From an uncultured Nitrospirales bacterium (GTDB lineage Bacteria; UBA10199; JADGCS01): a DNA stretch of 64,000 bases. A program made the translations under genes and the position numbers. Shown piece by piece: positions 1,413 through 22,901 of the stretch (positions are counted from its first letter, which is position 1; each line of letters begins with the position of its first letter). The stretch covers positions 7,341 to 71,340 of the forward strand of contig CAZGMS010000072.1 of the NCBI GenBank assembly GCA_964526915.1, given 5' to 3'. The notes below the pieces were generated by a model, which saw only the letters and a list, made by a program, of their open reading frames with translations, was not told the DNA's origin and ran no database searches.

Positions 1413-1428
1413 CCCTGCGCCTTAGGCC
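1413..1428. repeat. 16-nt motif copy 2 (CCCTGCGCCTTAGGCC), 13 nt 3' of the CapD/PglF-like stop codon
   Basis: Read directly from the sequence. Same orientation as copy 1. The two copies bracket the ATPase gene. Confidence 0.6.
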
Positions 1429-1441
1429 ATTATTCATAAAT

Positions 1442-3328: not shown

Positions 3329-3418
3329 GAGTGCCTCACAGAGCGGGCGGTATAATCATAAGCGAAAAGGGATGCAATCAAAAGATAGATTGGAGCATCA
3401 AATAGTCAGATGCGGTGG

Positions 3419-4546: not shown

Positions 4547-4591
4547 AATGATCAGTGCCTCAATTTTAGGATATTAGTCAAACATCAGCCA

Positions 4592-7042: not shown

Positions 7043-7152
7043 AGTACCACAAAACAGAAGTTGTTTTATCTAATAAAACACAAGACTATTTTTTCACGCA
7101 ACCTTACGCTAGAAAAAAGTGTGTCAAATAGCAACAAAGTAAGTGACTGGCA

Positions 7153-8406
7153 CTACACTGATATTGACTCAAGCCACTTAACCATTCTTGGGTAAACAAC
7201 ATCTGCTGATAATTCCTTGTTATAAAATGACATGGCTTGCTCAGACATTTTTTTTATCACGTCCGGTTGACTATAAAATTCAAAAAGAACATCGTACAAT
7301 TTATGTTCGTCCTTGTAATCATAGATAACACCACATCTGTTCTGCTGAAGAACATTTCCTATCACGCCATCAATTCCAGCGACTACTGGAAGCCCTGCAG
7401 AAAAATACTCCCCTATTTTATTTGGCAACGACATAAGAAAATCTATTGTCGGTTGATAAGGGGCCAAACCTATGTAAGAATAATTCAATAAATATTGAAT
7501 TTGGGCCCCATCAAGCCTGCCAGGAAACACAATGTTTGAGCAATCTGTAGTTTTTTTTCTTAGCCCCTCCAAAAACTCTCCGTTTCCACACATGACAAAA
7601 TAATAATCAGTTACATTTTTTAATTTTCTGGCAACATTAATGATGGTATCAAAATCAAATTGCCGACTCATTGAACCAATAAAACAAATCACTTTTTTAT
7701 GAAAGCCCGGTCCAACGCCATACCGTGCCCAAAAGTCTCTTGTCTCTTTTGATTCTTGATATTGATATTTTTTACAAGCCAAATAAAAAGGTTGATCGTT
7801 CTTACAGGTTTTTCTTCCTGATAATTTCAAGCCCCAATCTATAACCTGTTGCGTAATCCCTGTCACCGCAGTAGCTGATCTTATGGCTTGTTTTAATTGC
7901 CTATAATAAGGCCACATTATTTTTTTACAAATTGGCCTCAAACCTTTTGAAAAAGATCTTAAAAAAATATCTGGCCATAAATCTCTCAGGTCAAGAACAA
8001 CAGGCACATTGTTCAAGCGCCCATATCTTATAGCTTCTCTAGCCAACTCTATTGTTGGCATGGAACATAAAATTAGATCTGGGGGAGCAAAGAATGAAGC
8101 CATTTTTTTAAATTTTTTGGCAATCAAACAATGATCAAGGAGCCGTCTCACTGAAACACTTTTTGAATATCCCATAGAATTCATCAACACAAGCTGGCAG
8201 CAATCCTTCAAGTTAATCACTTGATCTTTATCAAATCGATGCTTTCTCTGAAAGTGATCAAAATCAGAGGCCCACCAAACCACTTCGTGACCTTGTTCAA
8301 TAAGATAATTTGCCAGCATGCCCATGCGATAAAGCCTAGGATTTTCACCATCAATGGGCAAAACCTCACCAATTTTTATCAACCATACTCTCATACGACT
8401 TTTCAA
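7153..8406 (-). CDS. Glycosyltransferase, GT-B fold (GT4-like)
   Basis: 417 aa. N-terminus MRVWLIKIGE...GHEVVWW; C-terminal donor-binding region NKIGEYFSAGLPVVAG. AT-rich gene within the GT/Wzy/Wzx block. Confidence 0.7.
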   Translation of the reverse strand: MKSRMRVWLIKIGEVLPIDGENPRLYRMGMLANYLIEQGHEVVWWASDFDHFQRKHRFDKDQVINLKDCCQLVLMNSMGYSKSVSVRRLLDHCLIAKKFKKMASFFAPPDLILCSMPTIELAREAIRYGRLNNVPVVLDLRDLWPDIFLRSFSKGLRPICKKIMWPYYRQLKQAIRSATAVTGITQQVIDWGLKLSGRKTCKNDQPFYLACKKYQYQESKETRDFWARYGVGPGFHKKVICFIGSMSRQFDFDTIINVARKLKNVTDYYFVMCGNGEFLEGLRKKTTDCSNIVFPGRLDGAQIQYLLNYSYIGLAPYQPTIDFLMSLPNKIGEYFSAGLPVVAGIDGVIGNVLQQNRCGVIYDYKDEHKLYDVLFEFYSQPDVIKKMSEQAMSFYNKELSADVVYPRMVKWLESISV

Positions 8407-9230
8407 ACAATTTTATAATCATTATCGTTAGCCCGAATCTCTTTTATAGCTTCTTCATATGTACAAAAACAAATGTTTTGATTCTTAATATATTCTATGA
8501 GCCAAACATACCATTTTTTCCACATCATAAAATCAGGGCCAAAATATCTATCATGAAAAATAACGCTCAAAAATGGTTGGTTTTCATTTTCTGCTTTCTC
8601 GATAAGTTGAATGGTTGTTTTCTGTATTGCATTAAAATCTTTTCTCTGCCAACGAGTCCTTTTAGAATTCATCAAATCTGAATCCATGACTTGAACTGGA
8701 AAAGAATAAAAATCACCAATGGCTGTTATTTCACTTCCTCTGACACTCGCCGTGTAGAGATAACCTAATTCAGCAAGCCAGACTAGTGTGTTTGAAGAAT
8801 GCCTCAAGTAATGCATCCGAATCCCAAAATCCTGAAGACCTGATAATTCTGAAAACAATCTGTGCTCATTCTTCATTTGTGTATAATCATCAAAAGCAAT
8901 GCCATGCACACCAACTCGAAAACCCTTATTAAGAACCCTTCTTATCCAATAGACTGCACGTTTATGAGAATAAGACAGTCCCAATCCTTTGGCCACTCCT
9001 ATATAAAATGTGGATGGAATTTTGTGTTTTCGGTCAAATTCCATCAAATCGTCAATGTTATTCCACTGATTACGCATTGAATAATAAAATCTAAGAAAAC
9101 ACTCCTTAATAGAAATTATTCCTAAAACTGTTTCAATGATTGTTCTGATAATAAATTTAGGAATGATCATATCCTTCCAATGCTCCAAAAAACTGATATG
9201 ATCGACGTCATGTGACACAATAACTTTCAT
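8403..9230 (-). CDS. Putative polysaccharide deacetylase-fold protein (divergent CE4-like)
   Basis: 275 aa. N-terminal VSHDVDH, then GVHG and RMHYLRHS...PVQVMDSDL. The same pattern recurs in ORF 42431-43795. Family assignment is by motif resemblance only. Confidence 0.4.
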   Translation of the reverse strand: MKVIVSHDVDHISFLEHWKDMIIPKFIIRTIIETVLGIISIKECFLRFYYSMRNQWNNIDDLMEFDRKHKIPSTFYIGVAKGLGLSYSHKRAVYWIRRVLNKGFRVGVHGIAFDDYTQMKNEHRLFSELSGLQDFGIRMHYLRHSSNTLVWLAELGYLYTASVRGSEITAIGDFYSFPVQVMDSDLMNSKRTRWQRKDFNAIQKTTIQLIEKAENENQPFLSVIFHDRYFGPDFMMWKKWYVWLIEYIKNQNICFCTYEEAIKEIRANDNDYKIV

Positions 9231-10348
9231 TCTGTTATCTGCTCTTGTTTAAATAACTTATCATACAAAGATATGAGTGCTTTCTCCTCATTAGCCCAAT
9301 TATACTTTGCCAGCACTGCCCTTTGTCCATTTTGCCCCATCTGATGAGCCTCTTCTGGATGCTCAATGATCCACTTGATTGCTCGAGCAATTTCTCTCAC
9401 ATCCAAAGGATTAACACAAATTCCACAATGGTGCTCATCAACAATTTTTTTCCACAAAGGAAAATCTGATGCAATAACCGGTAGACCGACTAACATATAC
9501 TCAAACATCTTAACGGGCAAACTGTCTGCATGTTGACCCTGGGGGTGCAAAACAACAAAGCCTGCGCATGAACCACCTAACACTTTCATGACTTCTTCTC
9601 GGCCTAAGAAACCCATATAATTAGTTTTTTTCCATCCAGACATATTCATTACGTTTTTTCTTAATTCTTTTGAATCAAATTTTCCCGCTAAATCAAAACG
9701 TGCATCTGCCATATCGATGGCTTGAATCATCTCAGTAATACCTCGTGCTTTTGTGACAGCCCCCACATAACAAACAGTATTTGCGGATTTTGTTATATCA
9801 CTTTTTTCAACAAGTTTTTTTTCGTCAAGAATGGGATAATTACACACCAAAACAACTTGTGGGTGAAACTTGGCAAACCGCTCTTGAATCGTTTCAGTTG
9901 CACAAACGACAGCATGAAATTTTTTTGCGGCAATATTTTCAAATTTTTCCACACATTTTGCCAACAAGCCACGAACAACCATAGGAATCCACGTTTTAAC
10001 CAACATTTGCCGAGGCAAATCTTCATGCACATCATAAATAATTTTTTTTCCTCTTTTTTTAAGCTTCAAAGCATAAGGGATCATTTCAGGATCGTGAATA
10101 TGGTAACAATGAGCATTGACCTGTATCGCTTGTTTATATACCTGATGCGTTGAAATAAGAAACCGATGCCACCGACTTTTTGGTTTTGTAATCGTAATGA
10201 TTTTAACTTGAGTTCTTGGAACATTTTTGTTTTCTAAAGCAACATATGAAACATGGTACCCTTCGTTGAGTAAGGAACAACACTCTTTATGAAGTATCCT
10301 CACGCTATTTGTGGAATGACCCGAACTTAAGTGACAAACCTTTATCAT
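9227..10348 (-). CDS. Glycosyltransferase family 4
   Basis: 373 aa. MIKVCHLSSGHSTNSVRILHKE N-terminus and LPVKMFEYMLVGLPVIASDF C-terminal motif. ATGA overlap with the downstream gene. Confidence 0.75.
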   Translation of the reverse strand: MIKVCHLSSGHSTNSVRILHKECCSLLNEGYHVSYVALENKNVPRTQVKIITITKPKSRWHRFLISTHQVYKQAIQVNAHCYHIHDPEMIPYALKLKKRGKKIIYDVHEDLPRQMLVKTWIPMVVRGLLAKCVEKFENIAAKKFHAVVCATETIQERFAKFHPQVVLVCNYPILDEKKLVEKSDITKSANTVCYVGAVTKARGITEMIQAIDMADARFDLAGKFDSKELRKNVMNMSGWKKTNYMGFLGREEVMKVLGGSCAGFVVLHPQGQHADSLPVKMFEYMLVGLPVIASDFPLWKKIVDEHHCGICVNPLDVREIARAIKWIIEHPEEAHQMGQNGQRAVLAKYNWANEEKALISLYDKLFKQEQITE

Positions 10349-10391
10349 GGCAAAATTTCAATGCAAATTTCTAAGAGAGCATCAAAAGCTC

Positions 10392-11753
10392 TCAATTCAA
10401 ACACCCTTCATTGCGAAACAAAACCCTTTTCGTTGGTAATAGAACCAAAAGAATTAAAGCCACAAGAATTCCATGTGTCAACAGAGCCGTCGGCAAATCA
10501 GAGCCGGAAAACATTGCAAAAAAAGGAATGACAATAATTGCTGTCACAATATTTTTATTCCTGTTTTGAGCCAAAGCATCTGTGATACCCAATAATAGGG
10601 AAATCAGACCTGCGTAAAGAGCCATTCCCCAATAACCTGCCTGCATAAATCCTGAGCCAATCCAACCTGTATTGGCACTACAATCAAAATTACCATAATA
10701 ATAATATCCCATCGTAAAAGGTCCGCTGAGACTATATGGCTGTTGTAGCATCCCAAGCGTAAAGGAACTATTTGACCATAACAACTGAGGTGATTGTGAA
10801 AAAAAATCATAATACTGGTAGTTGATCAACGCAGGCACAAAAAACACACGACGCATAAACCAACTTACAAGTACTTCCGCTATTCCTCCTAAAAGAAGAT
10901 GCATTCCTTGTATAAACAATAGCATTCCTATAAAATACAAAAGTAATTTACCTATCACATTTTTTTTGTGAATTAGATGAAATAAAAACATTACAACCCA
11001 AGGATAAAAGAATACTGACTTATGATTGCACAAACCAAACAACATGATACTACTGAACAAAAGGCTGAGAACACACCACCAACGTCTATTGACAATAGCT
11101 AAAATTAATGAAAAAGGTAACACCACCTTTGTTGTGACCGGAATAATGTAAGATAATAAACCGGGCCGAGAAGCACCCGCAGCCCTCCGGGTCTCATAAA
11201 CCAACGATAAATCAAAATTAAAATAGGCCATTCCACCAAAAGCAACAATCAACAGGATTGTTGCAATAACCCAAGCTAACGATATCTGCTGTAGAAACCC
11301 ATAGGACACAGAAAAACCAGTAGCCGAATTAAACAAACGAATTCTACTCAAAATAATTATCGCAATAAATAAAGCGACTATATAAAAAGTAAAGAATCTT
11401 GACAAATCCATAGCCCCATAAAGAACTAACATGGGCAAAATAGGGAAAAAAAATTGTGTGTGAAGCAAAATATCCGATGGTTTTTTGTAACTCTTTGGCA
11501 AAAAGAAAACAACCAACAAAATTGCTACAATACTTTCAAGAAATCTACTTGAATCAGGATACCAATAAAAACCATAATAACGCCAAACATTCGATATATA
11601 GTAATAATATCCATAAACAAATAAAACATAAATCATCAAATAGGCAATCATCATGATAAGCCACTGACTCATCACATGAAGCCTGTGATCTTCGCGATCC
11701 TCTATAACAATAGGAAATATTTTATCTAGAAATTTTACTTTCACGTTTATCAA
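10392..11753 (-). CDS. wzy: Polytopic membrane protein, O-unit polymerase (Wzy)-like
   Basis: 453 aa. Almost entirely hydrophobic and aromatic-rich segments, about 10 or more TM helices by eye. No catalytic soluble domain. Sits between a GT and Wzx; AT-rich. The call rests on context and topology only. Confidence 0.5.
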   Translation of the reverse strand: MINVKVKFLDKIFPIVIEDREDHRLHVMSQWLIMMIAYLMIYVLFVYGYYYYISNVWRYYGFYWYPDSSRFLESIVAILLVVFFLPKSYKKPSDILLHTQFFFPILPMLVLYGAMDLSRFFTFYIVALFIAIIILSRIRLFNSATGFSVSYGFLQQISLAWVIATILLIVAFGGMAYFNFDLSLVYETRRAAGASRPGLLSYIIPVTTKVVLPFSLILAIVNRRWWCVLSLLFSSIMLFGLCNHKSVFFYPWVVMFLFHLIHKKNVIGKLLLYFIGMLLFIQGMHLLLGGIAEVLVSWFMRRVFFVPALINYQYYDFFSQSPQLLWSNSSFTLGMLQQPYSLSGPFTMGYYYYGNFDCSANTGWIGSGFMQAGYWGMALYAGLISLLLGITDALAQNRNKNIVTAIIVIPFFAMFSGSDLPTALLTHGILVALILLVLLPTKRVLFRNEGCLN

Positions 11754-11868
11754 TTCTCTATCTATTTCAAAGCTCCACCACTTTTATATAACAACCCCAA
11801 TATTGTACATTGAAAAATCTGTTTTATGCCCTAGCAACATAGCTGTTGAATCGTAGATTAATTCGAGA

Positions 11869-13338
11869 TCATCTTTTACAGATTGATTTTAGTAAGAATA
11901 CTATTTTGGATAATCTTGAAGGTAACACGATCTTCAATACAAGATAATATAATGCAAACCAAACAATAATCAAAAATGCCACAACCGCCACCCTCCAATT
12001 TAGTGAGTGGTGAACTCCAATAATATGATAGAGAAAAAAAACTAATGCTGATGGAATACTATTTACAAAAAAAACAACACCTGAAATTTTTATGAATTTA
12101 TAAATAGAAAAAGAATAGTAATGAGTCACCAACAATTGACCAAACAACCTATCAACAAAACCGTAAAGGCCAAAAGACAAGGCCACTCCAGTCAAATGCC
12201 ACATACTCCCAAAGCAAATAAAAGCTGGCATCACCACCACTCTGAATAGATTGAGCACTGTTTTAATGTGAGGTTTTCCGCTACTGAAGACCAAACTACT
12301 GATTATTCCGCCCCCACAAGTTATAAAAATTGAATAAATCGACATCAGACGAACTAACACAGTAATATTTGACCATTTTTGACCAAAAAATAACAAAACA
12401 ATAAAATCTGCAAAAATGATAACCAAAATTGGAAAAGGCAGAGATACTAAAGATGTTATCATCAGGGACTCCCAAAAATTATCTTCAATCTTTGCCTTGT
12501 TATCTTGTGATCTTGAATAAATAGGAAATAACACTTTATCGTACACACCATTGAGTAATGCAGGAAAAAATGTGACCATTCTGTGGGCTAGGTTGAAAGC
12601 ACCAACAGACGACATATCAAGAATTTTTCCAATAAAGAAAGTGTCAAACCTTGCCGACGAGGTAGCAAGAACTCGTCCAACTGATACCCAAATGCCAAAA
12701 GCTAATAGTTGTTTTGCCTCGAGAAATGATCCAAAACTTTTTGGAAGATATCGTGTGAACTGATAGCCAATAATTAGTGACAAGACTGAAGCAACAATTT
12801 TTCCAAAAATAATGCTGTGTGGTCCATAATGTTTCACCGCAAATATCACTGTAACAAATCCATAAACAAGGTGATTGCAAACATTGATAAAAGAAATTTG
12901 TTTAAACTTAAGAGACCTTTGCAATAAACAAGTCTGCAACGATGATAGTCCGATAAACACATAAGTAACAGCTGACCACCTCATCAAACCAAGTAATTGC
13001 TCTGTATTATAGAAACTTGCTAAAAAGGGAGCCAAAAAGAAAATTAGTAACGAAACAAACATTGTAAAAAACACAACGCAACTGAATGCGCTATCAATAA
13101 CAGTATCGTTGATGTCTTTTCTTTGAACAATAGCGATGGAAACTCCAAACTCAGAAAACACCTGCAAAATCACCTGTATGGCCAACACTACCATCACCAC
13201 ACCAAAATCAGCAGGCGTTAACAATCTTGCTAAAACAATACTCAGAATGAGAAGTATACCATTTTGAATTGAAGAACTTGAAAAAAACCAAAAAGCCCCT
13301 TTGACGGCGATTTGTGAATTATTTACTTTCATATACAC
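11869..13338 (-). CDS. wzx: Wzx-type O-unit flippase (MOP superfamily, Polysacc_synt family); flippase no. 1
   Basis: 489 aa and polytopic. N-terminal region GILLILSIVLARLLTPADFGVVMVVLAIQVIL...IVQRKD is typical of lipopolysaccharide biosynthesis/Wzx proteins. Confidence 0.8.
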   Translation of the reverse strand: MYMKVNNSQIAVKGAFWFFSSSSIQNGILLILSIVLARLLTPADFGVVMVVLAIQVILQVFSEFGVSIAIVQRKDINDTVIDSAFSCVVFFTMFVSLLIFFLAPFLASFYNTEQLLGLMRWSAVTYVFIGLSSLQTCLLQRSLKFKQISFINVCNHLVYGFVTVIFAVKHYGPHSIIFGKIVASVLSLIIGYQFTRYLPKSFGSFLEAKQLLAFGIWVSVGRVLATSSARFDTFFIGKILDMSSVGAFNLAHRMVTFFPALLNGVYDKVLFPIYSRSQDNKAKIEDNFWESLMITSLVSLPFPILVIIFADFIVLLFFGQKWSNITVLVRLMSIYSIFITCGGGIISSLVFSSGKPHIKTVLNLFRVVVMPAFICFGSMWHLTGVALSFGLYGFVDRLFGQLLVTHYYSFSIYKFIKISGVVFFVNSIPSALVFFLYHIIGVHHSLNWRVAVVAFLIIVWFALYYLVLKIVLPSRLSKIVFLLKSICKR

Positions 13339-13512
13339 TCAATATCCTTAGTAATCAGGACTTGTATGGTAAAAGAAATAGCAAGGCAAAACGTGTCTTG
13401 TTCTCTCCCCGCCAGTTTTTGTGAAATACGACATGATGAAAATTGTCTGTTTAGCTCCGAGAAAACGATCCCTTCACCGAAAGTGGCTAAGATCATGGTC
13501 GTGGAGAAATAA

Positions 13513-14706
13513 TCACCTAACGATCTTTTTCAATCCTTTAAAAAGGGGACTTATTATGGAGAAAATGAACGGATAAGGATCGCGCCAAGACATTGGTTCA
13601 ATTGTATAGCCTCGTCCCATCAGGCTTTTTATATAACCAAAAGGTCTCAGATATTCCTTGTTTTTTATAATGGCTATGAGATCACCAGCCAAATACCACC
13701 AGAGAATCTTATCAGGGTATTCCTGTCTGAATTTCGTTAATACAGGCAAGAAACCCTGTAGAGCCTCTTGGTACATCAAATAAGGCAGATTGATGCCACA
13801 TCTAATGGCAAGGCTATTTGACATACTCATGCGTCCATTAATTTCCATGAGTTTGAATTGACCATCGCGGGGATCTAATTTGAACTGAGTTCCCGCATAT
13901 CCATAATAGCCAATTTTACGCACGAGTTTGAGACTATAATCTAATAAGGTATCGTTCCAGGTTGTTTCTACTAAAGTGCCTGATAAAAATTTTCCCTGGG
14001 ATCTCTTTTTGTAATTGATCAATAACCCTGTCGGTTGACTGTTCTTGTTAAGTGTCATTAACACAGTCTCGATCCTCTCAAACTCTCCAGGAATAAGATC
14101 TTGCAGTAGTAATTCTCCACCAAATCCATCAAAGTGCTTATAATTTCCTAGCAATTCTCCTTCATGATTACAGATAACTCCTTTTGTCCCATAATGGCTC
14201 AACAACGTACTGGAATGCTCTGCCTTCATGAATAAAGGATAGCTGAGTTTCTCTTCCTTGGAATTCAGCAGACTTTCCAACTCAGATTGGCAAGTAATAT
14301 AATGTGTTTTTGGTATGGGAACACCTAATTCCTCAGCAATTTTGTAAGTGCGCCTCTTTTCCCGCACCAACTTTACTGTTTCCCAATCGGGAAAAGTTGT
14401 CTTCATTTCAGCTTTTAGTTCATTATGTCTTTTTGCCAAAACATCCAAATAACTGTCATTACCAGCTACAATCAATACAGATTCTACGCCAATTTCTCGA
14501 TCAAACCACTTGTTCAGTTTTTCGATGAAATCGACATCCTTTGAATCCAATTGCAATATTTTTTTTACAAAACGGGATTTTGTACACAAACCTTTACCAT
14601 CTGGAGAAACCATGTAAATTGGAATATCATATTTGCATAGACCTCTTATCGCACCAAAAGCCGAAATATGATCACCAAAGATGATTACGGGGGGTGTGTT
14701 TTTCAT
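13513..14706 (-). CDS. ATP-grasp carboxylate-amine ligase
   Basis: 397 aa. Pre-ATP-grasp N-terminus VIIFGDHISAFGAIRGLCKYDIPIYMVS and C-terminal GYAGTQFKLDPRDGQFKLMEINGRMS. ATGA overlap with the upstream decarboxylase gene. Confidence 0.75.
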   Translation of the reverse strand: MKNTPPVIIFGDHISAFGAIRGLCKYDIPIYMVSPDGKGLCTKSRFVKKILQLDSKDVDFIEKLNKWFDREIGVESVLIVAGNDSYLDVLAKRHNELKAEMKTTFPDWETVKLVREKRRTYKIAEELGVPIPKTHYITCQSELESLLNSKEEKLSYPLFMKAEHSSTLLSHYGTKGVICNHEGELLGNYKHFDGFGGELLLQDLIPGEFERIETVLMTLNKNSQPTGLLINYKKRSQGKFLSGTLVETTWNDTLLDYSLKLVRKIGYYGYAGTQFKLDPRDGQFKLMEINGRMSMSNSLAIRCGINLPYLMYQEALQGFLPVLTKFRQEYPDKILWWYLAGDLIAIIKNKEYLRPFGYIKSLMGRGYTIEPMSWRDPYPFIFSIISPLFKGLKKIVR

Positions 14707-15866
14707 CGAATGCCATCCTCAGTTAATAATTTCATGAATGCTTCCTTTTGTTCCCTAAGGTTGAAGTCCAGTGAACCAAGGTCACTCCGAATGCCTTTTC
14801 TGACGCGAATGTCAATAAAAGCAGAACCTTCAGTTGATAATAACGTTTTGATTGCATCGCGAAGAGCTTGTTCCGTTTCAACCGCCGCACCAACAGTCTT
14901 ATAACCCGAATTGTTGGCAATAGCTGTCAAATTTGCCACAAAACCAGCTGAGGGCTGGCCACCAACAGATTCGTGAGCACCATTATTCAAAACCACATGT
15001 AAAAAGTTCGGCAACTTGAGTTTTCCTGCCGTCGTCAAAGAACCCAAATGCATGATAGCCGCCGCATCTCCATCCAAACAAACAACAAGTCTCTTTTTTT
15101 GTGCCAAGGCAATACCAGAAGCAATTGAGCTGGTATGGCCCATAGCACCCACATTTAGAAAATCCTGATTGTGACCAACCCCGCTCAAGTTGCGTAAGCC
15201 GTAAAGCTCGCGTGTCGCTCTGCCTGTTGTTGCAACAAATATCGCTTCTTTCGGCACACACTGAAGAACACACTCAATCGCATTTTCCCGAGTCATGTTG
15301 TAAATACTATCTGAACCCTCCTCTTCTTTTTTCTTTCCTTTTTCAAACATCCCTTTCTTAGCAAGAAGCGCAACAGGGCCACATATCTTTTGAGCAGTGC
15401 GAACCGCCCACCTGGCGGCATCAAACGACCCCTCACCATCATTCTCTATTATTCTGAAGGGAATATCCATAGCCTCCAGTAATAAGGGCGTCAGTTCGCC
15501 CTGCTTTTTATGCTGTGCATGATCTGTAACGCCTGGATCACCGCGCCAGCCAATCAGCAATATCATTGGTATACCATACACCTCTTTGTTGGTGAGCGAA
15601 AGCAAGGGGTTCATGGCATTGCCTATTCCAGAATTTTGCATATATACCAGGGGCACGGTGCCCGTGGCAAAATGATAACCCGCGGCAAGTGCAACAGCAT
15701 TACCTTCGTTCGCCGCGATGACATGACGCTCACTGGGCAAATGAGCTTCGACATACTTGCAGAATTCATTAAGAAGTGAATCCGGCACGCCTGTTATAAA
15801 CGCAACCCCCTCATTTTGCAGGCACTCATAAAATGCTTTCTGATCGATCATAATCAATGTCCTCAC
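14703..15866 (-). CDS. ThDP-dependent 3-substituted-pyruvate decarboxylase (phosphonopyruvate/sulfopyruvate decarboxylase, fused alpha-beta type)
   Basis: 387 aa. N-terminus QKAFYECLQNEGVAFITGVPDSLLNEFCKYV is typical of Ppd/ComDE. ThDP motif CLDGDAAAIMHLG...NNGAHESVGGQ. Confidence 0.8.
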   Translation of the reverse strand: MRTLIMIDQKAFYECLQNEGVAFITGVPDSLLNEFCKYVEAHLPSERHVIAANEGNAVALAAGYHFATGTVPLVYMQNSGIGNAMNPLLSLTNKEVYGIPMILLIGWRGDPGVTDHAQHKKQGELTPLLLEAMDIPFRIIENDGEGSFDAARWAVRTAQKICGPVALLAKKGMFEKGKKKEEEGSDSIYNMTRENAIECVLQCVPKEAIFVATTGRATRELYGLRNLSGVGHNQDFLNVGAMGHTSSIASGIALAQKKRLVVCLDGDAAAIMHLGSLTTAGKLKLPNFLHVVLNNGAHESVGGQPSAGFVANLTAIANNSGYKTVGAAVETEQALRDAIKTLLSTEGSAFIDIRVRKGIRSDLGSLDFNLREQKEAFMKLLTEDGIR

Positions 15867-17215
15867 AACAAACGAAATAGACTATGGAAGTCTCTTTGTA
15901 CATTCCACACAATCTTTATGATTTCACGGCTTTCTTCCCCGGATTTATTTCCATACGCAGACAACGTGATAAACTTCTCTTTGATTTCATCATCTGAAAG
16001 CGGATTTTCAGGTTCTCCTTTGGGGAAATCAACTCTTTCAGTGTAAGATGCTCCATGACAAGTCTCAATTGTAACGATGGCGGCACGCTTTTGCGGCACT
16101 AGGGCTGTGATTTTCTCATCAGCGCAAACAACTATTCTTTTTGCTAGTGAAATGATCTCCGCATTGTTCACATTTTCTGCTGTAAACTCATCAAGGCCAG
16201 ATTTACCTTTCACAATGGCAACGGCCACACTGTATGGAATGCTCATTTTTGCTGAAGAGATGCCTCTGATTTCCGTGTGATCATGTTTGCCTATAACCCC
16301 TTTGTAAGTGGTCACCTTGATGCTTTTGATGTCAGAGACACAAAGACCATGGTTCAATTTGATCTTCAGTGTGGCTTCTATAGCTGGATGCGTGTGCCGA
16401 CAAGAAGCATATGACTTGAAATAAACTTTTTCGATCGAAAAAGGATCTCTATCATTTCTTTCCAAATGAGCCAAATCATGCTCTTTGGCCATCATCGATA
16501 AAAACCCTGTAGGGCCAGCGAGCACGTCATCAAGCCCCTTAAAACATGCTCTGCCCATGATTGATGATAACAAGCCAACCAGCGCAGCACGGCCTACATT
16601 AAATGGTTTTAAATCAGATCCATCTTCAATCACCTTAAGCATTCCTGATGCAGAAATTGCGGCCGCAGACAAGGCATCTTTCAGTTGAGTTTTGGTAAAA
16701 CTCAACATGGCCCCAATGCCCACGGCTGCCCCAAGGGAACCACAAGTGGCCGTAGGATGATAGCCACAATTGTAATGAGCCGGTTGCATGGCACTGGCAA
16801 TGCTAATTGCAGCTTCATAACCAATAATAACACCTTTAAGTAAAGCAGTGCCCTCGACTTTTTCTTTCTCAGCAACAGGTAACAGAGCCGATATAATGGG
16901 TGAACCTGGATGCAAAACACCAAAACGCACGCCATCGTCTAATTCAGCAATATGAGCACTAAGACCATTCATCAAAACAGCATTGATAAGACTCGCTTTT
17001 CTGTTAAAACCAATCACTGTGGCATCACTTTGAGTGTCATTCAAATATTTTAATAGCTCGTCACCTTTTTCTTTCATCATCCGTGCCCCAGCAAAAGTGG
17101 CACCCAGATAATCCAGCAAACACCTTTTCGCTTGTAACACAACAATATCGGGAAAATCCGTATGGCTCAAATGATAGAGAGTATCGATGAATTTATCAGT
17201 AAGGTTATCGGTCAT
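15863..17215 (-). CDS. MmgE/PrpD-family protein (2-methylcitrate dehydratase / cis-aconitate decarboxylase superfamily)
   Basis: 450 aa. N-terminus FPDIVVLQAKRCLLDYLGATFAGARMM and overall length fit PrpD-family proteins. Confidence 0.8.
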   Translation of the reverse strand: MTDNLTDKFIDTLYHLSHTDFPDIVVLQAKRCLLDYLGATFAGARMMKEKGDELLKYLNDTQSDATVIGFNRKASLINAVLMNGLSAHIAELDDGVRFGVLHPGSPIISALLPVAEKEKVEGTALLKGVIIGYEAAISIASAMQPAHYNCGYHPTATCGSLGAAVGIGAMLSFTKTQLKDALSAAAISASGMLKVIEDGSDLKPFNVGRAALVGLLSSIMGRACFKGLDDVLAGPTGFLSMMAKEHDLAHLERNDRDPFSIEKVYFKSYASCRHTHPAIEATLKIKLNHGLCVSDIKSIKVTTYKGVIGKHDHTEIRGISSAKMSIPYSVAVAIVKGKSGLDEFTAENVNNAEIISLAKRIVVCADEKITALVPQKRAAIVTIETCHGASYTERVDFPKGEPENPLSDDEIKEKFITLSAYGNKSGEESREIIKIVWNVQRDFHSLFRLL

Positions 17216-17226
17216 GTATTATTATT

Positions 17227-18183
17227 TTATCGGAAATAAAACTGGAAATAGCTGGGGCATTCTGATTTTGTATCTTCCCATGCCGCAGTAAACGCACTCA
17301 CTATTGTTTCAGGTAGAGGTCCTTTTTTGACTGCAAAAAGATTCTGCTTTAACTGGTCCCTATTTGAAGCACCTATTATCATTCCATCACCTTCGCTTTT
17401 GTCAAGGAGTGAATGAAAAGCAAGCCACCGATAGGCCGCTTCAGCGGTCTCTATTCCTGATTTTCGGCATGCTATTGTAAGAACATTGACTGCCTCAAAA
17501 TAGGATTTTTTCCAATACCTGTCACGATAACTCTGAAGTCGCGCAAAGCGACCAGACATGGGCTTTTCGTCAAAATTGATGTGTTTTCCTGACAACATGC
17601 CACCAGCCAGAGGATTGAATGCGTAAAAACGCATGCCCAACTTTCTTAAAGCGGGAAACAACTCGCCCTCAACGTTGCGGGTCAATCCGTTATACATCCC
17701 CTGATACACACTTGGCCTGAGCCAGCCACGTTCTTTGCAAAGATGCCATATGTCCACAACCATCCAGGCGGGAAAATTACTTAATCCCAGTTCCTTAATT
17801 TTCCCCTGTTCATGGAGGTTTGCACACGCTTCCAAGGCCCCCTCAATGGGGGTTTGAGCATCTGGAAAATGAAGATACAAAATATCAACCGAATCACGGC
17901 ACAGGCGGCGCAGTGATTCTTCAAACTGCATGATCACCGCAACACCATCAAGTTTGCCCGTAACCCGGGGATGAACTTTGGTCGCAAGACAAAGAGAATC
18001 TTCCGTAAACTCATTCAGAAAAGTGCCAAGAATTTTTTCGGTTTCGCCTTCGTTATATACGTAAGCCGTGTCCAATTCATGGTAACCTGCTTCAATGAAG
18101 CATTTCACCATGGCACGACTACCCTCGGTATCCACCTGAGGACCAAAAGTCATTGTTCCCAATATCAGTTTCATCATATCCAT
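17227..18183 (-). CDS. Aldo-keto reductase
   Basis: 318 aa. LGTMTFGPQVD and ELDTAYVYNEGETEKILG match the AKR catalytic Asp/Tyr region. Confidence 0.85.
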   Translation of the reverse strand: MDMMKLILGTMTFGPQVDTEGSRAMVKCFIEAGYHELDTAYVYNEGETEKILGTFLNEFTEDSLCLATKVHPRVTGKLDGVAVIMQFEESLRRLCRDSVDILYLHFPDAQTPIEGALEACANLHEQGKIKELGLSNFPAWMVVDIWHLCKERGWLRPSVYQGMYNGLTRNVEGELFPALRKLGMRFYAFNPLAGGMLSGKHINFDEKPMSGRFARLQSYRDRYWKKSYFEAVNVLTIACRKSGIETAEAAYRWLAFHSLLDKSEGDGMIIGASNRDQLKQNLFAVKKGPLPETIVSAFTAAWEDTKSECPSYFQFYFR

Positions 18184-18198
18184 TGGAGGTGCCCTTTA

Positions 18199-19089
18199 CT
18201 AAATTGACCCTTTTGCTGAGCACAAAGCATCGCTATCATAACTGTCAATAACTCGTTTGACAAGATTGACCTGCTTGGCTCGCTTTTTTGCCTCAGCCAC
18301 AGTCGTTTCCCAACCATGCGTTTTGGCAACTGAGCCTCCTGTTTTAAGATATATAGGGGAACCCACCCGTATCATTTCTGGCACTTCATAATGGCGAATA
18401 AAACCACCGGACGACGCGGGATTTTCTGTATGAATATCGATCGGGATGCTGATGGCTTGCCTTATAGCGGCAAGCATTTGCAGTTGAATGTCCCTGACCG
18501 GGTTGATCGAATTTGCTCCTACATTTTCCAGAAGTTTGGCGGAACAAGGATTGCCATGACCGCAATGGGCAGATATTTTGAATTTACAATCAGAAGGAAG
18601 CTCACCTTGCTTGCGCATTTCATCTAACACCCACAAAAGTCCTTCATCATAAATCAAAAAACCTCTACACCCCAATTTGCCAGCACGTTTAACATCCTCG
18701 ATGGCACGAACGATTTGTTCCTGCCCACGGAGCCGGAGCCCCATTTTTTGACCTTCCTCCGTGTGAACTGATGCGCTCGTATCGTAAGTTGCCCGCGGAC
18801 CGATGGCCAGCACGAGTTCCACCTGCCATTGTTTTGCCAACGCCACCATTTCATTTATTTCATCATCAGTCAGAATCATGATGCCCTTTGTTTGCGTAAC
18901 GCGGTGGATAACGGCACCAAAGGTATCCAATTCTTCAAGCAAAGCCTTCATTGAGCCGGGTCCCTGTATACCAGGCACCTCAAACCTGTACTGCGCGCCA
19001 TCCGCGAATCGCTTTGCAGACGATGGCAGATCATACGCATCTCCTGATGGTAATCCTATTTTATTAAGAAACAACCTGGTCTCTTTCAT
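18199..19089 (-). CDS. Conserved-looking hypothetical enzyme, family not recognised (possible alpha/beta-barrel)
   Basis: 296-aa ORF with tight operon spacing (15 and 40 nt). Alternating beta/alpha-like pattern with KISAHCGHG and IPIDIHTENP. It is not a PEP mutase by motif, and it lacks the Cys signature of U32 proteins. Confidence 0.45.
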   Translation of the reverse strand: MKETRLFLNKIGLPSGDAYDLPSSAKRFADGAQYRFEVPGIQGPGSMKALLEELDTFGAVIHRVTQTKGIMILTDDEINEMVALAKQWQVELVLAIGPRATYDTSASVHTEEGQKMGLRLRGQEQIVRAIEDVKRAGKLGCRGFLIYDEGLLWVLDEMRKQGELPSDCKFKISAHCGHGNPCSAKLLENVGANSINPVRDIQLQMLAAIRQAISIPIDIHTENPASSGGFIRHYEVPEMIRVGSPIYLKTGGSVAKTHGWETTVAEAKKRAKQVNLVKRVIDSYDSDALCSAKGSI

Positions 19090-19129
19090 TTTTTCATCCC
19101 CCTAATGGTTCATCCATCTGTTTTCTTGT

Positions 19130-20005
19130 CTACCCCAGAACAATACTATTTTTTCTTGGATCGTAGCAACATCCCATCCGCAGGCTGACAATGCGCACAC
19201 CGCTTGCCCTTTGTGGCCCAATTTCTACAAATGAATTTAATGCCGTAATGCTACCCCCAATCCCCAGCGGCCCACAAAAAGTATTGTTCAGTGTTGCCGT
19301 AATCAATGCTTCAATCTCGTTTTCGTTTCCAAAAGTCTTGTTTGCCATAGCATCGAGCATGAGGCAAGTCGCTTCATAATGTGTTCTTCCTATCCCAACA
19401 GCAGGAACGCAGGGTGTACATCCAAGCAAACCTACCATTTCTACTGCCCAACCGGCAATTTCCGTGCTGATTCGAGAAGAATCGTGGTGGTGAAATACTC
19501 TATAGGTGCGGGATCGTATTTCCGGCCCCCCTCCAAGCATCATCACAGTCAAACGAAGCTGACTGCCTTTGATTGTTTTCATTCTAATCGGGGCAGATGT
19601 CAACATTCCCGAATCTTCGTAAAGCCCCTTTGTTTGTACGAGCCTTTCCATATCATTGCCACACACAGCCATCGGACGGCCTGGTAAAGCTCGCAAACCT
19701 GCTACAATACCATTATCGACAATTTCTAAAAGTTTTCCAACATTGCCTTCAATGTCAGCCTCATCACCTACCTCAAGCAAAACATGGGGCACCCCTGTAT
19801 CGTTGCATAAAGGTAATTTGTTTTTTTCTGCGACGATCGCATTTTCTAATATCATCTCAAGAATCCACTTCGCTTTCTGCTCTGTTTCCCTCGCAATGGC
19901 ATTCTCATAGGCCAGACGCTGATCATGACGAAAACTTGTGCTCGCTTTTATCAATGCCTCGGCAGACGCTTCTAGAATTTCAGATAGTTTTATTGCCACG
20001 CACAC
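19130..20005 (-). CDS. Fe-S hydro-lyase, tartrate/fumarate subfamily, alpha subunit
   Basis: 291 aa. LPLCNDTGVPHVLLEVG corresponds to the (Q/C)DTG motif of class I fumarase/TtdA. Additional Cys residues are available as cluster ligands. Confidence 0.75.
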   Translation of the reverse strand: MCVAIKLSEILEASAEALIKASTSFRHDQRLAYENAIARETEQKAKWILEMILENAIVAEKNKLPLCNDTGVPHVLLEVGDEADIEGNVGKLLEIVDNGIVAGLRALPGRPMAVCGNDMERLVQTKGLYEDSGMLTSAPIRMKTIKGSQLRLTVMMLGGGPEIRSRTYRVFHHHDSSRISTEIAGWAVEMVGLLGCTPCVPAVGIGRTHYEATCLMLDAMANKTFGNENEIEALITATLNNTFCGPLGIGGSITALNSFVEIGPQRASGVRIVSLRMGCCYDPRKNSIVLG

Positions 20006-20020
20006 CCTTTTTAGTTCTGT

Positions 20021-20551
20021 TCATTTGACATGAAAAATTGATTCCCCGTTGGCCGCGGCTATGATGCCGGGCAAGCCACGAATCGTTAATTCATGCAACG
20101 CTTCCATGCCCTCTTCTTCAAACGCTATCACCCTTTTAGAAATCAATCGACTCTGAAAAAGAGCTGATGTCGGCGGCACAACAATAAAAATGGCCCCATG
20201 TCTGGATATATCTTTGACTGTTTGCTTTTTAAGAACACCTTTTCCGATATGCAACCGAACACCCGCTTCAGACAGAATACCCATCGTTCCTTCGATTTCT
20301 TCTTTATTGCTTGAGGTTGGGCCAAAACCGGCTGGGCTAAAAGCGGCATGCATAAAAGCCGCACCTTCCATGGTAATCGGTAGTTCCGTTATCGTGCCAT
20401 CTTTTATCATTTTAGCAATCTTCGGCAATATGGCATCTCTGGCGGTATAAACCACACCGTGTATTTCCACACGACTACCGACTAGCACATTCGACAAATC
20501 AGTCCTCACAGGTGTTTCAATTTTAAGAAGCAAATTAACACATCCTCTCAT
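20021..20551 (-). CDS. Fe-S hydro-lyase, tartrate/fumarate subfamily, beta subunit
   Basis: 176 aa. GVVYTARDAILPKIAKMIKDG matches the G-x-I-Y-T-x-RDAAH-type motif of class I fumarase C-terminal domain/TtdB. Adjacent to the alpha subunit. Confidence 0.75.
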   Translation of the reverse strand: MRGCVNLLLKIETPVRTDLSNVLVGSRVEIHGVVYTARDAILPKIAKMIKDGTITELPITMEGAAFMHAAFSPAGFGPTSSNKEEIEGTMGILSEAGVRLHIGKGVLKKQTVKDISRHGAIFIVVPPTSALFQSRLISKRVIAFEEEGMEALHELTIRGLPGIIAAANGESIFHVK

Positions 20552-20593
20552 GGCATATTAGGCATCTTGAAAATACAGATTAAAGCACGGCTA

Positions 20594-21736
20594 TTATTTT
20601 AAGATGAGTTTTAAGTAGGTTGCTTCATTTTCAATAACTCCGTATGCTTTTGCCCGACTGATGATTTTTTTCGCCCAGTGTTTGTGTGGGTTTATTTCAT
20701 TCATTTTATTGGCCTTCACACTTTTAACCACACCTCCTGGTGTTTCTAATATTTGTAGGGCATCCTCAAATTCTTCCCTGATCACCGTCTGCATGGCATT
20801 GACATATTTGGCGTGCGAGGGGTGAATGATTGTTTTACCGACAAATCCATTGGCCTTATCAAGAATAACTTCCCTCATCAAGCCATCAACCGCTTCATTT
20901 AAGATCGGACTTCTGGTCAACAAAGAACGATGAATATCATCGGCCAATAAATTATCAAGATTATCCCCTTTGTGCACCAAAAAATACTCCCACACTGGTC
21001 CAGACACCGTGTAGTTATCTTCCTCTCTGCTGAAAAAATTCAACACATCAGACAAACAATCTTTGACTGTCAAGATATCATAAATGGAGTAGTTGATCCC
21101 TCGCCTCACTCCAAACATCGATGAAATATCAGTTCCTCCAATCCTGATATTCAGAACAAGTTTTTTAAAAGGCTCCATCATTGTTCTGATCTGACTCAAC
21201 TCATCAGTTCTCAATTCCTTATACGCTATTGTTTTTCCCTCAAGAATGGGCATGCCATACAAAGAAACTTTTAATTTACTATTCAGAGATTCAAGACAAT
21301 TGAAGTACTCTTGACAATTATGACTACAGAACTTGGGGAACGCAAATCCAGACAAAACGTTAGATTGTTCGCTCGTTAACTTCTCAACAAACCCCTTGAA
21401 TTGCTCTGGATGACGCACGCGCAGAAAGATTAATGGTATTTCATCGTGTGTGATCGCCCCTAAAGCCAAGGCTTCTGCAATTTTGTTCAATTGACTTAAC
21501 ACACTGTTCTCGGCCACTGGCAAGATCATTTCATCAACAGCATCTTCAAAGTCCATGACAATCGATGTTGCCTCAAGCACATCCTTTTTTAATAATTTAT
21601 CAACAATATTTTGCGTGCCCGGCATATAGAGTGTGGCGCCTAGACAATACTGCAACAAATCTTTATCAGTGAATTTGTTAAATTCTATTGGTTCCAAAAA
21701 AAATTGGGTGTTTGGATGATATCTGTGGTGCTTCAT
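20594..21736 (-). CDS. HpcH/HpaI aldolase / citrate lyase beta (CitE)-like lyase, long form
   Basis: 380 aa. Motifs GATLYMPG, IVMDFEDAV, IFLRVRHP and GFVGKTIIHPSHAKYVN parallel the CitE family motifs. Confidence 0.7.
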   Translation of the reverse strand: MKHHRYHPNTQFFLEPIEFNKFTDKDLLQYCLGATLYMPGTQNIVDKLLKKDVLEATSIVMDFEDAVDEMILPVAENSVLSQLNKIAEALALGAITHDEIPLIFLRVRHPEQFKGFVEKLTSEQSNVLSGFAFPKFCSHNCQEYFNCLESLNSKLKVSLYGMPILEGKTIAYKELRTDELSQIRTMMEPFKKLVLNIRIGGTDISSMFGVRRGINYSIYDILTVKDCLSDVLNFFSREEDNYTVSGPVWEYFLVHKGDNLDNLLADDIHRSLLTRSPILNEAVDGLMREVILDKANGFVGKTIIHPSHAKYVNAMQTVIREEFEDALQILETPGGVVKSVKANKMNEINPHKHWAKKIISRAKAYGVIENEATYLKLILK

Positions 21737-21824
21737 TTTTTTATTCCCGTAAAGACCTTGCCAAGACGATAGATTTCGCTTGCCACGCCATATTATTAAT
21801 TTTCAAAACGATGTTCACACAAAA

Positions 21825-22901
21825 TCACAATACAGTGCCATATTTCATGGCTCGATACCTCACACAATAAAAATATAGCGAATAACTGATAAGGATAATG
21901 GTGAAAATAATAATGACTATACTGTTACTAAGTGTTTTAATATAATAAAAAGCCAGTGCGGCCAATATGATAGTCTGCAAATAATAAAAAAGTGTTATCG
22001 ACTTCACCTCCCAACCCATCATGTGAAGCAACTGATACGGATGCATCCTGTGCGCCTGATATATTTTATGCCCCTGACACAGCCGCCAAATGACGGTAAA
22101 CAATGTTTCCATTATAAAATTAGCAAATAAAATGGGCGTGATCAAAAAAGGTGTGTGTGATTGATCATAGTTAGCCGCCAAGATGGCAATGGCACCAAAA
22201 GAAAATCCCAAAAAAGTACTGCCCACATCGCCCATAAATATGGTGCCTTTGGGAAAATTGAATATCAAAAAACCTAAAGCAGCGGCCGCCAACATATAAC
22301 TCACATGAAACACAAAACCACTACCCATCATGAACGTAATCAGTGTAAAACCCAGCCCCACCAGCACAGCCGTACCTGCAGCCAAACCATTGATCCCATC
22401 CATAAAGTTAAAGGCGTTTGTGATGCCCACAATCCATAAAATGGTCAGCGGATAACCCCATATTCCCAACTCTACATTTCCGAAATAAGGAATGGTGAGC
22501 TTTTTGATTGTGAGGCCAAAGGCCATCAGTATGATCACGCCAACAAACTGACTGAGGAACTTATAGGCAAAGGCCTTATTAGTGATGTCATCATACAAAC
22601 TGACAACAGCAATCATGAGAGATGATAAAAACAAACCCCAGTATGGCTTGGCGCCCACAAAATTATCATTCTGCAAAACATAGTAGAGCAAAATGCCTAT
22701 GCAATACGATACGACAATGGCAATTCCTCCACTACGAGGTATAGCACCCGTGTGAGAACTTCTTGCACACGCTGTATCCATGATCCTGACATATTTACGG
22801 CAAAGATATGTAAAGCATGCTGACAAAAATACCAGCATGATAAAAAAAGCGGTATTCGAAACATAAAACATGCTATGATTTTTCAAAAGTTCTGTCAGCA
22901 T
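21825..22901 (-). CDS. Polyprenyl-phosphate HexNAc-1-phosphate transferase (MraY/WecA/WbpL family); initiating enzyme no. 2
   Basis: 358 aa and polytopic. Motifs YDDITNK, NAFNFMDGINGLAAG and IFMGDVGSTFLGF. Confidence 0.9.
   Translation of the reverse strand: MLTELLKNHSMFYVSNTAFFIMLVFLSACFTYLCRKYVRIMDTACARSSHTGAIPRSGGIAIVVSYCIGILLYYVLQNDNFVGAKPYWGLFLSSLMIAVVSLYDDITNKAFAYKFLSQFVGVIILMAFGLTIKKLTIPYFGNVELGIWGYPLTILWIVGITNAFNFMDGINGLAAGTAVLVGLGFTLITFMMGSGFVFHVSYMLAAAALGFLIFNFPKGTIFMGDVGSTFLGFSFGAIAILAANYDQSHTPFLITPILFANFIMETLFTVIWRLCQGHKIYQAHRMHPYQLLHMMGWEVKSITLFYYLQTIILAALAFYYIKTLSNSIVIIIFTIILISYSLYFYCVRYRAMKYGTVL

Follow-up and report, generated by a model that had tools for sequence, protein, structure and literature searches.

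Composition and gene history of a probable Wzx/Wzy-type polysaccharide locus with a conserved enzyme cassette in an uncultured Nitrospirales bacterium

Introduction

Among the described surface-polysaccharide loci, the O-antigen (rfb) clusters of enterobacteria are close in build to the locus reported here. According to Reeves et al. (2013, PMC3715488), the glycosyltransferase (GT), wzx and wzy genes of Salmonella clusters are 28–37% in GC, compared to 51–52% for the genome, and the pathway genes are intermediate; wzx and wzy are often the lowest in GC, highly divergent and replaced between related clusters. Here, we analyzed a 64,000-nucleotide stretch of contig CAZGMS010000072.1 from an uncultured Nitrospirales bacterium (the window), in which a cassette of organic-acid-type enzyme genes is followed directly downstream by Wzx, Wzy-like, GT and deacetylase genes. 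Like the rfb clusters, and in particular the galactose-initiated set of Salmonella, the locus is segmented in GC, with low GT, wzx and wzy genes and divergent wzx and wzy. Set against the same published figures, the contrast in the window is smaller, ∼36% versus 45%, and is measured within the region. Unlike in Salmonella, the conserved module consists of organic-acid enzymes and not of a nucleotide-sugar pathway, and all genes lie in a single-strand array of at least 64 kb. Our analysis indicates that the window probably carries a Wzx/Wzy-type surface-polysaccharide locus of two-speed architecture, whose GC contrast would be partly of amino-acid and partly of synonymous origin and whose two modules would both have horizontal histories.

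Two other systems resemble parts of the cassette. A Ter-operon-associated biosynthetic module with an ATP-grasp enzyme and a TIM-barrel C-C lyase was reportedly described by Anantharaman, Iyer and Aravind in 2012, and is said to be the source of the families PF15632 and PF15617. Both families occur in one operon of the window (PF15617 at 363.3 bits, PF15632 at 36.7 bits). However, no TerD-family or other Ter protein, phosphoribosyltransferase or HAD phosphatase was found in Pfam scans of the 56 window proteins, the context is a glycan locus with PrpD-like, Fe-S hydro-lyase, aldo/keto reductase (AKR) and thiamine diphosphate (ThDP) decarboxylase genes, and other loci with the cassette mostly carry a different type of ATP-grasp enzyme. 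Phosphonate decoration of glycans, for example of Bacteroides fragilis polysaccharide B, depends on the PepM-Ppd-aminotransferase route, of which phosphoenolpyruvate (PEP) mutase is the defining enzyme. The window decarboxylase scores above the cut-off of the Ppd family TIGR03297, a reductase is near, and aminotransferases are nearby in many loci; unlike in the PepM-Ppd system, PEP mutase was not found among the window proteins, four annotated relatives or the recurrent neighbours of the cassette.

Results

The low-GC block departs from the local baseline

All 56 large open reading frames (ORFs) of the window lie on the minus strand, and by their Pfam matches nearly all belong to surface-polysaccharide synthesis. 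A Wzx flippase, initiating transferases of PF02397 and PF00953, a Wzz regulator (PF02706) and GT1 genes at 7153 and 9227 are present, as in Wzx/Wzy loci. The GC of the window is 41.1%. The original prediction, based on four lines of 60 nt counted by hand, held that the acid cassette is GC-richer than the adjacent GT/Wzy/Wzx and radical S-adenosylmethionine (SAM) blocks. The four counts, 22, 32, 25 and 16 G+C per 60 nt, are exact.

We segmented the window by log-likelihood ratio, accepting splits at values of at least 7.5; the maximum in 20 base shuffles was 3.7. The resulting segments are 1–5670 (GC 0.451), 5671–6770 (0.425), 6771–14640 (0.359), 14641–20480 (0.451), 20481–31340 (0.406), 31341–47110 (0.431), 47111–60790 (0.382) and 60791–64000 (0.438). 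The compositional heterogeneity is thus real and far above chance. Segment 6771–14640 (35.9%) covers the N-terminal half of the PglC-like gene and the GT1a, deacetylase, GT1b, Wzy-like, Wzx and ATP-grasp genes, and the ‘GC island’ of 14641–20480 (45.1%) corresponds to six enzyme genes. Step sizes were measured at every position as the contrast between 1.5 kb on the left and 1.5 kb on the right. The largest step of the window, −9.8 points at ∼6.73 kb, falls inside the PglC-like gene; further large steps are located at ∼14.73 kb (+7.4 points) and ∼20.49 kb (−7.8 points). The predicted steps did not appear: at 13.4 kb the contrast is just +4.3 points, a value reached by 18% of all positions, and at 21.8 kb, with a contrast of +0.8 points, there is no step. 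Nor is the cassette GC-rich as a whole, as its ATP-grasp gene (0.381) and its C-C lyase gene (∼0.390) are low.

For each gene, we derived an expected GC, given its amino-acid sequence and the codon usage pooled over the window, and calculated the GC at four-fold degenerate third positions (four-fold GC3). The five genes of 7153–13338 have an observed GC of 0.356, an expected GC of 0.390 and a four-fold GC3 of 0.305 (229/751). The corresponding values are 0.452, 0.445 and 0.447 for the six genes of 14703–20551, and 0.417, 0.413 and 0.450 (2907/6466) for the rest of the window. In four-fold GC3 the low block differs strongly from the rest (χ2 = 56.7, p = 5e-14), whereas the island does not (p = 0.93). 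The cassette is therefore GC-richer in total GC, as predicted, but its synonymous sites equal the window background; the anomaly is the low-GC block, and the cassette sits at the local baseline. The predicted low GC of the Wzx/Wzy/GT genes is borne out at synonymous sites, and this AT enrichment is a long-known signature of serotype-specific polysaccharide genes.

Of the 9.6-point contrast between block and island, ∼5.5 points (∼57%) are due to amino-acid composition and ∼4.1 points (∼43%) are synonymous; after conditioning on the amino-acid sequence, a residual of −3.4 points is left in the low block. All five block genes have z values of −3.4 to −4.6. Among the 56 genes they hold the four lowest and five of the six lowest four-fold GC3 values, the minimum (0.262) being that of the deacetylase gene. 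Membrane-protein composition, which as the sole cause would have refuted the prediction, does not account for this: z is −3.4 to −4.1 in the three soluble proteins of the block as well (two GT1 proteins and the deacetylase). The three are also about as rich in Phe, Tyr, Met, Ile, Asn and Lys (FYMINK fraction 0.337) as Wzx and Wzy (0.348), so the amino-acid effect is not a membrane-protein effect either. The FYMINK fraction of the island enzymes is 0.262; their Gly, Ala, Arg and Pro (GARP) fraction is 0.269, compared to 0.18–0.20.

At the other end of the island, the C-C lyase gene has an expected GC of 0.388, very near the observed value, and a four-fold GC3 of 0.477. Its low GC and the 20.5-kb step are wholly driven by amino acids. 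The ATP-grasp gene has a four-fold GC3 of 0.357 and a z value of −1.2.

The low GC claimed for the radical SAM block was upheld in part. Synonymous sites are modestly depleted in GC in two of its four genes (54458–56645; z ∼−2.5), and amino-acid composition accounts for the remainder. Separately, no part of the window deviates more in dinucleotide signature than the region 54001–61000 (δ* 0.064–0.075, ranks 4 and 1 of 59 six-kb segments), which contains the four radical SAM genes, two of them with B12-binding domains; it exceeds both the low-GC block and the cassette.

Gene history breaks between Wzx and the ATP-grasp gene

We compared the window with two close relatives. One, the Logan contig L082, shares the gene order of the window. 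For the other, we used L119 and L001, which encode proteins identical to those of the JGI 3300072015 83-kb contig; that contig also has this order, including the WecA-like gene. In addition, a metagenome scan with the ATP-grasp protein gave only one close match, 2.2 kb in length (L089, 73%), and a scan of GTDB representatives gave no relative above 62% identity.

As listed in Table 1, identity falls from 74% to 36% across the 174-bp gap between the ATP-grasp and Wzx genes. By these protein comparisons homology breaks at the gap, with the conserved cassette on one side and the variable processing genes on the other; the largest intergenic gaps are located at module junctions. On cassette genes each relative is closer to the window than to the other relative, so the window Wzx would be expected to be at least ∼67% identical to theirs. 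The observed values of 35–36%, compared to 65–86% for the cassette genes, make Wzx phylogenetically incongruent, and it was probably replaced in the lineage of the window. Incongruence between the modules was thus found as predicted, exactly at the 13.4-kb gene junction: this boundary exists in gene history and not in GC. GC and homology boundaries do not coincide, because the ATP-grasp gene is compositionally low yet phylogenetically belongs with the cassette. The GC boundary at ∼14.65 kb even lies inside a translationally coupled pair, the ATP-grasp gene and the decarboxylase gene upstream of it, which overlap by 4 bp and are kept as a unit in the relatives.

The remaining block genes behave differently from Wzx. 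The Wzy, deacetylase and GT1a genes have orthologues (56–64%) in the same order beside the cassette in the L119 lineage; therefore they were co-inherited with it, although they evolve faster than the cassette. L082 carries different genes at these positions. Within the low block, phylogenetic incongruence was accordingly found for Wzx and not for Wzy, the deacetylase and GT1a. Of the predicted separate origins of the modules, the mosaic nature of the locus and the incongruence of Wzx stand, whereas a separate origin of these three genes does not.

Two of the block proteins needed additional evidence for their assignment. The deacetylase was assigned from homologues named deacetylase, some of them with PF01522. 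The Wzy-like gene occupies the position of a Wzy_C protein in L082, with undetectable sequence similarity between the two, and its product is probably Wzy. A DUF7033 gene stands between Wzx and Wzy in both L082 and L119; that slot is empty in the window.

The whole low-GC block (∼6.8–14.6 kb) might be a recent, un-ameliorated import from a lower-GC donor. The coherent synonymous deficit of five consecutive genes (z −3.4 to −4.6), the sharp steps at 6.7 and 14.7 kb and the replacement of Wzx relative to the relatives agree with such an event, and L119, which has the Wzy, deacetylase and GT1a orthologues, is itself a lower-GC locus (0.373). However, with identities of just 56–64% these orthologues are far too divergent for a recent transfer from the L119 lineage, and the 14.65-kb boundary cuts a gene pair that is conserved as a unit. 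The usual marks of an island did not turn up: repeats at the block borders are short and at chance level only, no integrase or transposase is among the Pfam matches of the window, and no tRNA-like anchor was seen at the block, for which no dedicated tRNA scan was run. Promoter and terminator scans at the junctions gave nothing beyond shuffle expectation. The dinucleotide signature of the block is also ordinary (δ* 0.033–0.038, rank 28–37 of 59). Moreover, the relatives also have their lowest GC3 in this class of genes (L082 Wzy, 0.283; L119 GT and deacetylase genes, 0.25–0.31), which favours a persistent class-specific bias over recent import. We therefore regard a recent import of the block as unlikely. 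As evidence for separate origins the dinucleotide signature was rejected, neither module being an outlier.

The cassette keeps its genes and follows the GC of its hosts

Using an alignment of PrpD-like homologues, we collected 80 loci from GTDB species representatives. Most of these loci contain cassette genes by tblastn with the window proteins; the genes lie within glycan loci and their order varies. The GC comparison was made on the 47 loci that carry four or more core genes and are flanked by sufficient sequence; their locus GC ranges from 30 to 56%. In 41 of the 47, the total GC of the cassette is higher than that of the neighbouring genes (mean difference +3.1 points; Wilcoxon p = 4e-7). 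The excess is +0.4 points at four-fold sites, where 24 of 47 loci have a positive value (p = 0.8). The cassette GC3 ranges from 0.11 to 0.86 and correlates with that of the neighbours (r = 0.88), i.e. the synonymous sites of the cassette follow each host. Where all seven core genes are present (22 loci), the order of GC within the cassette always correlates positively with that of the window (median Spearman coefficient 0.73); the C-C lyase and PrpD genes are below the cassette mean in 95%, and the FumA and 296-aa protein genes are above it in 95%. As the excess disappears at four-fold sites and the gene order in GC is reproduced, the higher GC is a property of the cassette proteins.

With phyla assigned from record titles, the cassette occurs in ∼11 phylum-level groups: Desulfobacterota, Bacillota, Bacteroidota, Bdellovibrionota, Spirochaetota, Balneolales, Victivallales, Fibrobacter, Verrucomicrobiota, Cloacimonadota and Actinomycetota. 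For ∼40% of the sequences the nearest neighbour belongs to another group (31/77 PrpD, 25/54 TIM-barrel and 21/52 lyase sequences); for example, the TIM-barrel proteins of a Spirochaetales and a Ruminococcus locus are 94% identical. It follows that the cassette itself is horizontally mobile, at least as much as the GT block. One Deltaproteobacteria metagenome-assembled genome, LaCa_MAG_21, carries the cassette core twice, on separate contigs (L002 and L054); the PrpD-like proteins of the two copies are 59% and 42–43% identical to that of the window.

The cassette enzymes score far below the equivalog families of core metabolism. For the PrpD-like protein, the values are 40.6 against a cut-off of 575 (NF006943), on which its candidacy as a methylcitrate dehydratase was rejected, and 30.2 against 458 (TIGR02330); its best matches in the PDB are a B. 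subtilis IRG1-like protein and an iminodisuccinate epimerase. The C-C lyase, with weak RipC and CitE matches, scores 21.4 against 443 as CitE. The fumarase and TtdAB equivalogs were likewise missed (PRK06246, 115.8 against 276; PRK08230, 36.1 against 365). The hydro-lyase alpha subunit passes the subfamily domain TIGR00722 (105.5, cut-off 100.65 bits), and all NCBIfam matches of the beta subunit are below the cut-offs (TIGR00723, 58.3 against 145.15).

These data bear on the proposal that the cassette is GC-rich as a vertically inherited recruit from the core metabolism of the host, with the GT/Wzy/Wzx and radical SAM blocks as low-GC imports. The total GC of 0.452 versus 0.356, the core-metabolism-like families (PrpD, fumarase, CitE-like, AKR) and the incongruent Wzx speak for it. 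At synonymous sites, however, the cassette equals the background; its GC excess recurs in 41 of 47 unrelated hosts and is gone at four-fold sites; and its own ATP-grasp and C-C lyase genes are low in GC. In addition, its proteins are far from core enzymes by score, it is a dedicated glycan-locus module with an intermixed phylogeny over ∼11 phylum-level groups, and it was inherited together with Wzy, the deacetylase and GT1a. Recruitment from core-metabolism-like genes, which the original prediction put forward as possible, was thus not upheld as a recent event, and we consider this explanation quite improbable.

Cassette composition and proposed chemistry

To define the cassette, all ORFs within 6 kb of it were clustered in 52 loci (Table 1). 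The PrpD-like protein, the 296-aa protein, the C-C lyase and the two hydro-lyase subunits are the most constant members. The ThDP decarboxylase and the AKR always occur together and form an optional pair. A DegT aminotransferase is present in 27 of the 52 loci, and smaller sets of loci have a D-2-hydroxyacid dehydrogenase, Ldh_2, an adenylosuccinate-lyase-like protein or an ATPgrasp_ST ligase.

Three mutually non-homologous types of ATP-grasp enzyme accompany the cassette: the LAL-like type (36/52 loci), ATPgrasp_ST (6/52) and the Ter type, found in the window and its two closest relatives. Examples are 13513–14706 of the window (minus strand), 12544–13791 of L025 and 6308–7420 of L048. BLAST gave no similarity between the window protein and the common LAL-like type. 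Non-homologous types beside one and the same cassette indicate non-orthologous displacement of the ligase, with its role kept. A second ATPgrasp_Ter-type ligase of the window (44497–45681) adjoins a PHP-domain protein (43797–44522) and a DUF7033 protein (42431–43795), all on the minus strand.

The most conserved gene of the cassette encodes the 296-aa protein, which is 77–86% identical in more than 6000 homologues. It is predicted to fold as a TIM barrel (pLDDT 65.5, pTM 0.71), and a structure search gave generic fold matches only.

Superfamilies of C5-dicarboxylate (itaconate, citramalate and mesaconate) enzymes, i.e. IRG1/CAD, the RipC/Ccl lyase and class I fumarase/mesaconase, are all represented in the cassette. 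Unlike in the C5-dicarboxylate systems, the scores are far below the family cut-offs, genes for CoA-transferases or ligases are absent and the context is biosynthetic and not catabolic; this is resemblance only. Judged by family membership, the cassette would lead, through condensation or cleavage, dehydration, rehydration and optional decarboxylation and reduction, to a small hydroxy- or oxo-(di)carboxylic acid; a small hydroxy- or oxo-carboxylic acid is the most likely product. In ATP-grasp chemistry, a carboxylate is activated to an acyl phosphate and then joined to an amine. The cassette ligase would then form an amide between the carboxylate of the acid and an amine, the latter probably that of an amino sugar in the repeat unit; the window also encodes WbpM-like, DegT and PglD-like amino-sugar enzymes.

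No description of the cassette was found in the literature searched. We put forward, with reservation, that it may be an undescribed, widespread pathway for a non-sugar acid substituent of glycans, in which the 296-aa TIM-barrel protein would catalyse a new reaction. For this protein, one option is a PEP-mutase-independent supply of substrate to the Ppd-like decarboxylase.

Gene order and other features of the window

The coordinates of the locus are collected in Table 1. Read as transcribed (22901 down to 1442), the order is WecA-like transferase, C-C lyase, Fe-S hydro-lyase beta and alpha subunits, 296-aa protein, AKR, MmgE/PrpD, ThDP decarboxylase, ATP-grasp and Wzx, followed by Wzy-like, GT1b, deacetylase, GT1a, PglC-like, PglD-like, DegT, Wzz and WbpM-like genes. 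In the JGI 3300072015 relative, a gene of the same size and family as the WecA-like gene also stands directly upstream of the cassette.

Table 1. Coordinates, family matches and conservation of the features of the locus. Loci, number of the 52 clustered loci with the gene; identity, protein identities (%) of window–L082 / window–L119/L001 / L082–L119/L001.
Feature	Position (strand)	Family match and other data	Loci (of 52)	Identity (%)
Wzz chain-length regulator	3419–4546	PF02706		
PglC-like initiating phosphoglycosyl transferase (Bac_transf)	6410–7042 (−)	PF02397, 1.5e-62		
GT1a, GT1-family glycosyltransferase	7153–8406 (−)	PF13692 + PF00534; GC 0.368, four-fold GC3 0.345, z −4.1		26 / 57 / 21
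Polysaccharide deacetylase, divergent PgdA/CDA1 type	8403–9230 (−)	No match in Pfam scan		Absent from L082; 64 to L119/JGI orthologue
GT1b, GT1-family glycosyltransferase	9227–10348 (−)	PF00534, 5.7e-20; four-fold GC3 0.316		44.5 / 44 / 42
Putative Wzy-like polymerase, polytopic membrane protein	10392–11753 (−)	11 hydrophobic segments; no match in Pfam and NCBIfam scans		none / 56 / none
Wzx flippase	11869–13338 (−)	PF13440, 3e-67, 227 bits; PF01943, 113 bits; 14 hydrophobic segments		36 / 35 / 67
Intergenic gap, largest of the region in the gap table	13339–13512	174 bp		
ATP-grasp carboxylate-amine ligase (ATPgrasp_Ter type)	13513–14706 (−)	PF15632, 36.7 bits (cut-off 29.1)		74 / 74 / 65
ThDP decarboxylase, phosphonopyruvate/sulfopyruvate decarboxylase type	14703–15866 (−)	PF02775 + PF02776	31	76 / 71 / 65
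MmgE/PrpD-family enzyme, IRG1 / iminodisuccinate-epimerase branch	15863–17215 (−)	PF03972 + PF19305	52	73 / 72 / 68
Aldo/keto reductase (AKR)	17227–18183 (−)	PF00248, 7.2e-56	30	74 / 77 / 71
296-aa protein, predicted TIM-barrel fold	18199–19089 (−)	No family assignment	50	85 / 86 / 81
Fe-S hydro-lyase alpha subunit (class I fumarase / tartrate dehydratase type)	19130–20005 (−)	PF05681, 1.8e-48	44	
Fe-S hydro-lyase beta subunit	20021–20551 (−)	PF05683, 2.1e-19, 70.2 bits (cut-off 22.2)	43	
CitE/HpcH-like TIM-barrel C-C bond lyase	20594–21736 (−)	PF15617, 1.4e-108, 363.3 bits (cut-off 28.4)	47	
WecA-like (Glycos_transf_4) initiating transferase	21825–22901 (−)	PF00953, 3.3e-37		

The window as a whole (1–64000) is a single uninterrupted minus-strand array of polysaccharide genes. 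It contains two Wzx-type flippases, the one of Table 1 and a second at 49115–50425. Other genes encode a PMT_2-like membrane protein (26222–27625), a heparinase II/III-like protein (33203–34816), an asparagine-synthase-like amidotransferase (47160–49046) and NeuB (62038–63111). This content suggests several glycan loci in tandem. Upstream of the WecA-like gene, the mechanically called ORFs 22895–23989 and 23851–25113 (both on the minus strand) overlap by 139 nt. The epimerase Pfam match begins at residue 49, so the true start of the epimerase is probably further downstream and the overlap is a detail of ORF calling, not real.

Discussion

The two-speed Wzx/Wzy-type locus that we consider probable would work as follows. 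A conserved tailoring module, read from the C-C lyase through the ATP-grasp ligase (21736 down to 13513, minus strand), would be followed by a fast-evolving, exchange-prone block of Wzx, Wzy-like, two GT1 and deacetylase genes. The cassette would move between phyla with its GC tracking each host, whereas in the processing block single genes would be replaced: Wzx in the lineage of the window, and, in a direction not established, the Wzy-position and last-GT genes that differ in L082. The synonymous part of the contrast appears confined to the Wzx, Wzy, GT and deacetylase genes, with the ATP-grasp gene partly affected. The amino-acid part would reflect six central enzymes rich in Gly, Ala, Arg and Pro within surroundings that are rich in Phe, Tyr, Met, Ile, Asn and Lys, whether soluble or membrane proteins.

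Several points weigh against this interpretation. The ATP-grasp gene is compositionally intermediate though phylogenetically part of the cassette, so a picture of two classes is not clean. The baseline is the other 50 kb of this polysaccharide region and not a genome-wide GC or GC3, and the synonymous AT enrichment could fit either import from lower-GC donors or weak expression combined with AT-biased mutation. The ordinary dinucleotide signature and the lack of flanking repeats and mobility genes argue against a recent island, yet they give no positive support for selection or mutation. The decarboxylase passes the phosphonopyruvate decarboxylase equivalog TIGR03297 (419.5, cut-off 312.5 bits), yet PEP mutase is absent from the window; a PepM gene may be present elsewhere in the genome. 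Finally, the proposed chemistry is drawn entirely from family membership and gene association.

That there is no real mosaic, with all GC differences arising from the amino-acid composition of membrane or poorly conserved proteins versus compact enzymes, is hardly credible: amino acids do explain ∼5.5 of the 9.6 points and the entire 20.5-kb step, and the GC order within the cassette is conserved across hosts, but the −3.4-point residual, the four-fold GC3 of 0.305 versus 0.450 (p = 5e-14) and the equally strong deficit of the three soluble block proteins contradict it.

The window is a new example, in an uncultured organism, of the textbook arrangement in which low-GC wzx, wzy and GT genes lie beside better-conserved precursor genes. 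By itself the compositional finding is of little consequence. It carries a caution, as total GC here puts each of the two module boundaries ∼1.2 kb off and flags the wrong module as the anomaly, whereas four-fold-site GC and the three-way identity comparison gave the correct picture. Of greater interest is the organic-acid module of five to eight genes, centred on a TIM-barrel protein without a family that keeps ∼80% identity from phylum to phylum. It recurs in the glycan loci of gut, rumen, marine and sediment bacteria, cultured strains among them; carriers include Blautia producta DSM 2950 (L032; chromosome ∼1.474–1.495 Mb), Enterocloster citroniae DSM 19261 (L045), Desulfobacter latus AcRS2 (L006) and Pelagicoccus sp. 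SDUM812002 (L030). As the cassette is present in cultured strains, its product could be determined experimentally.

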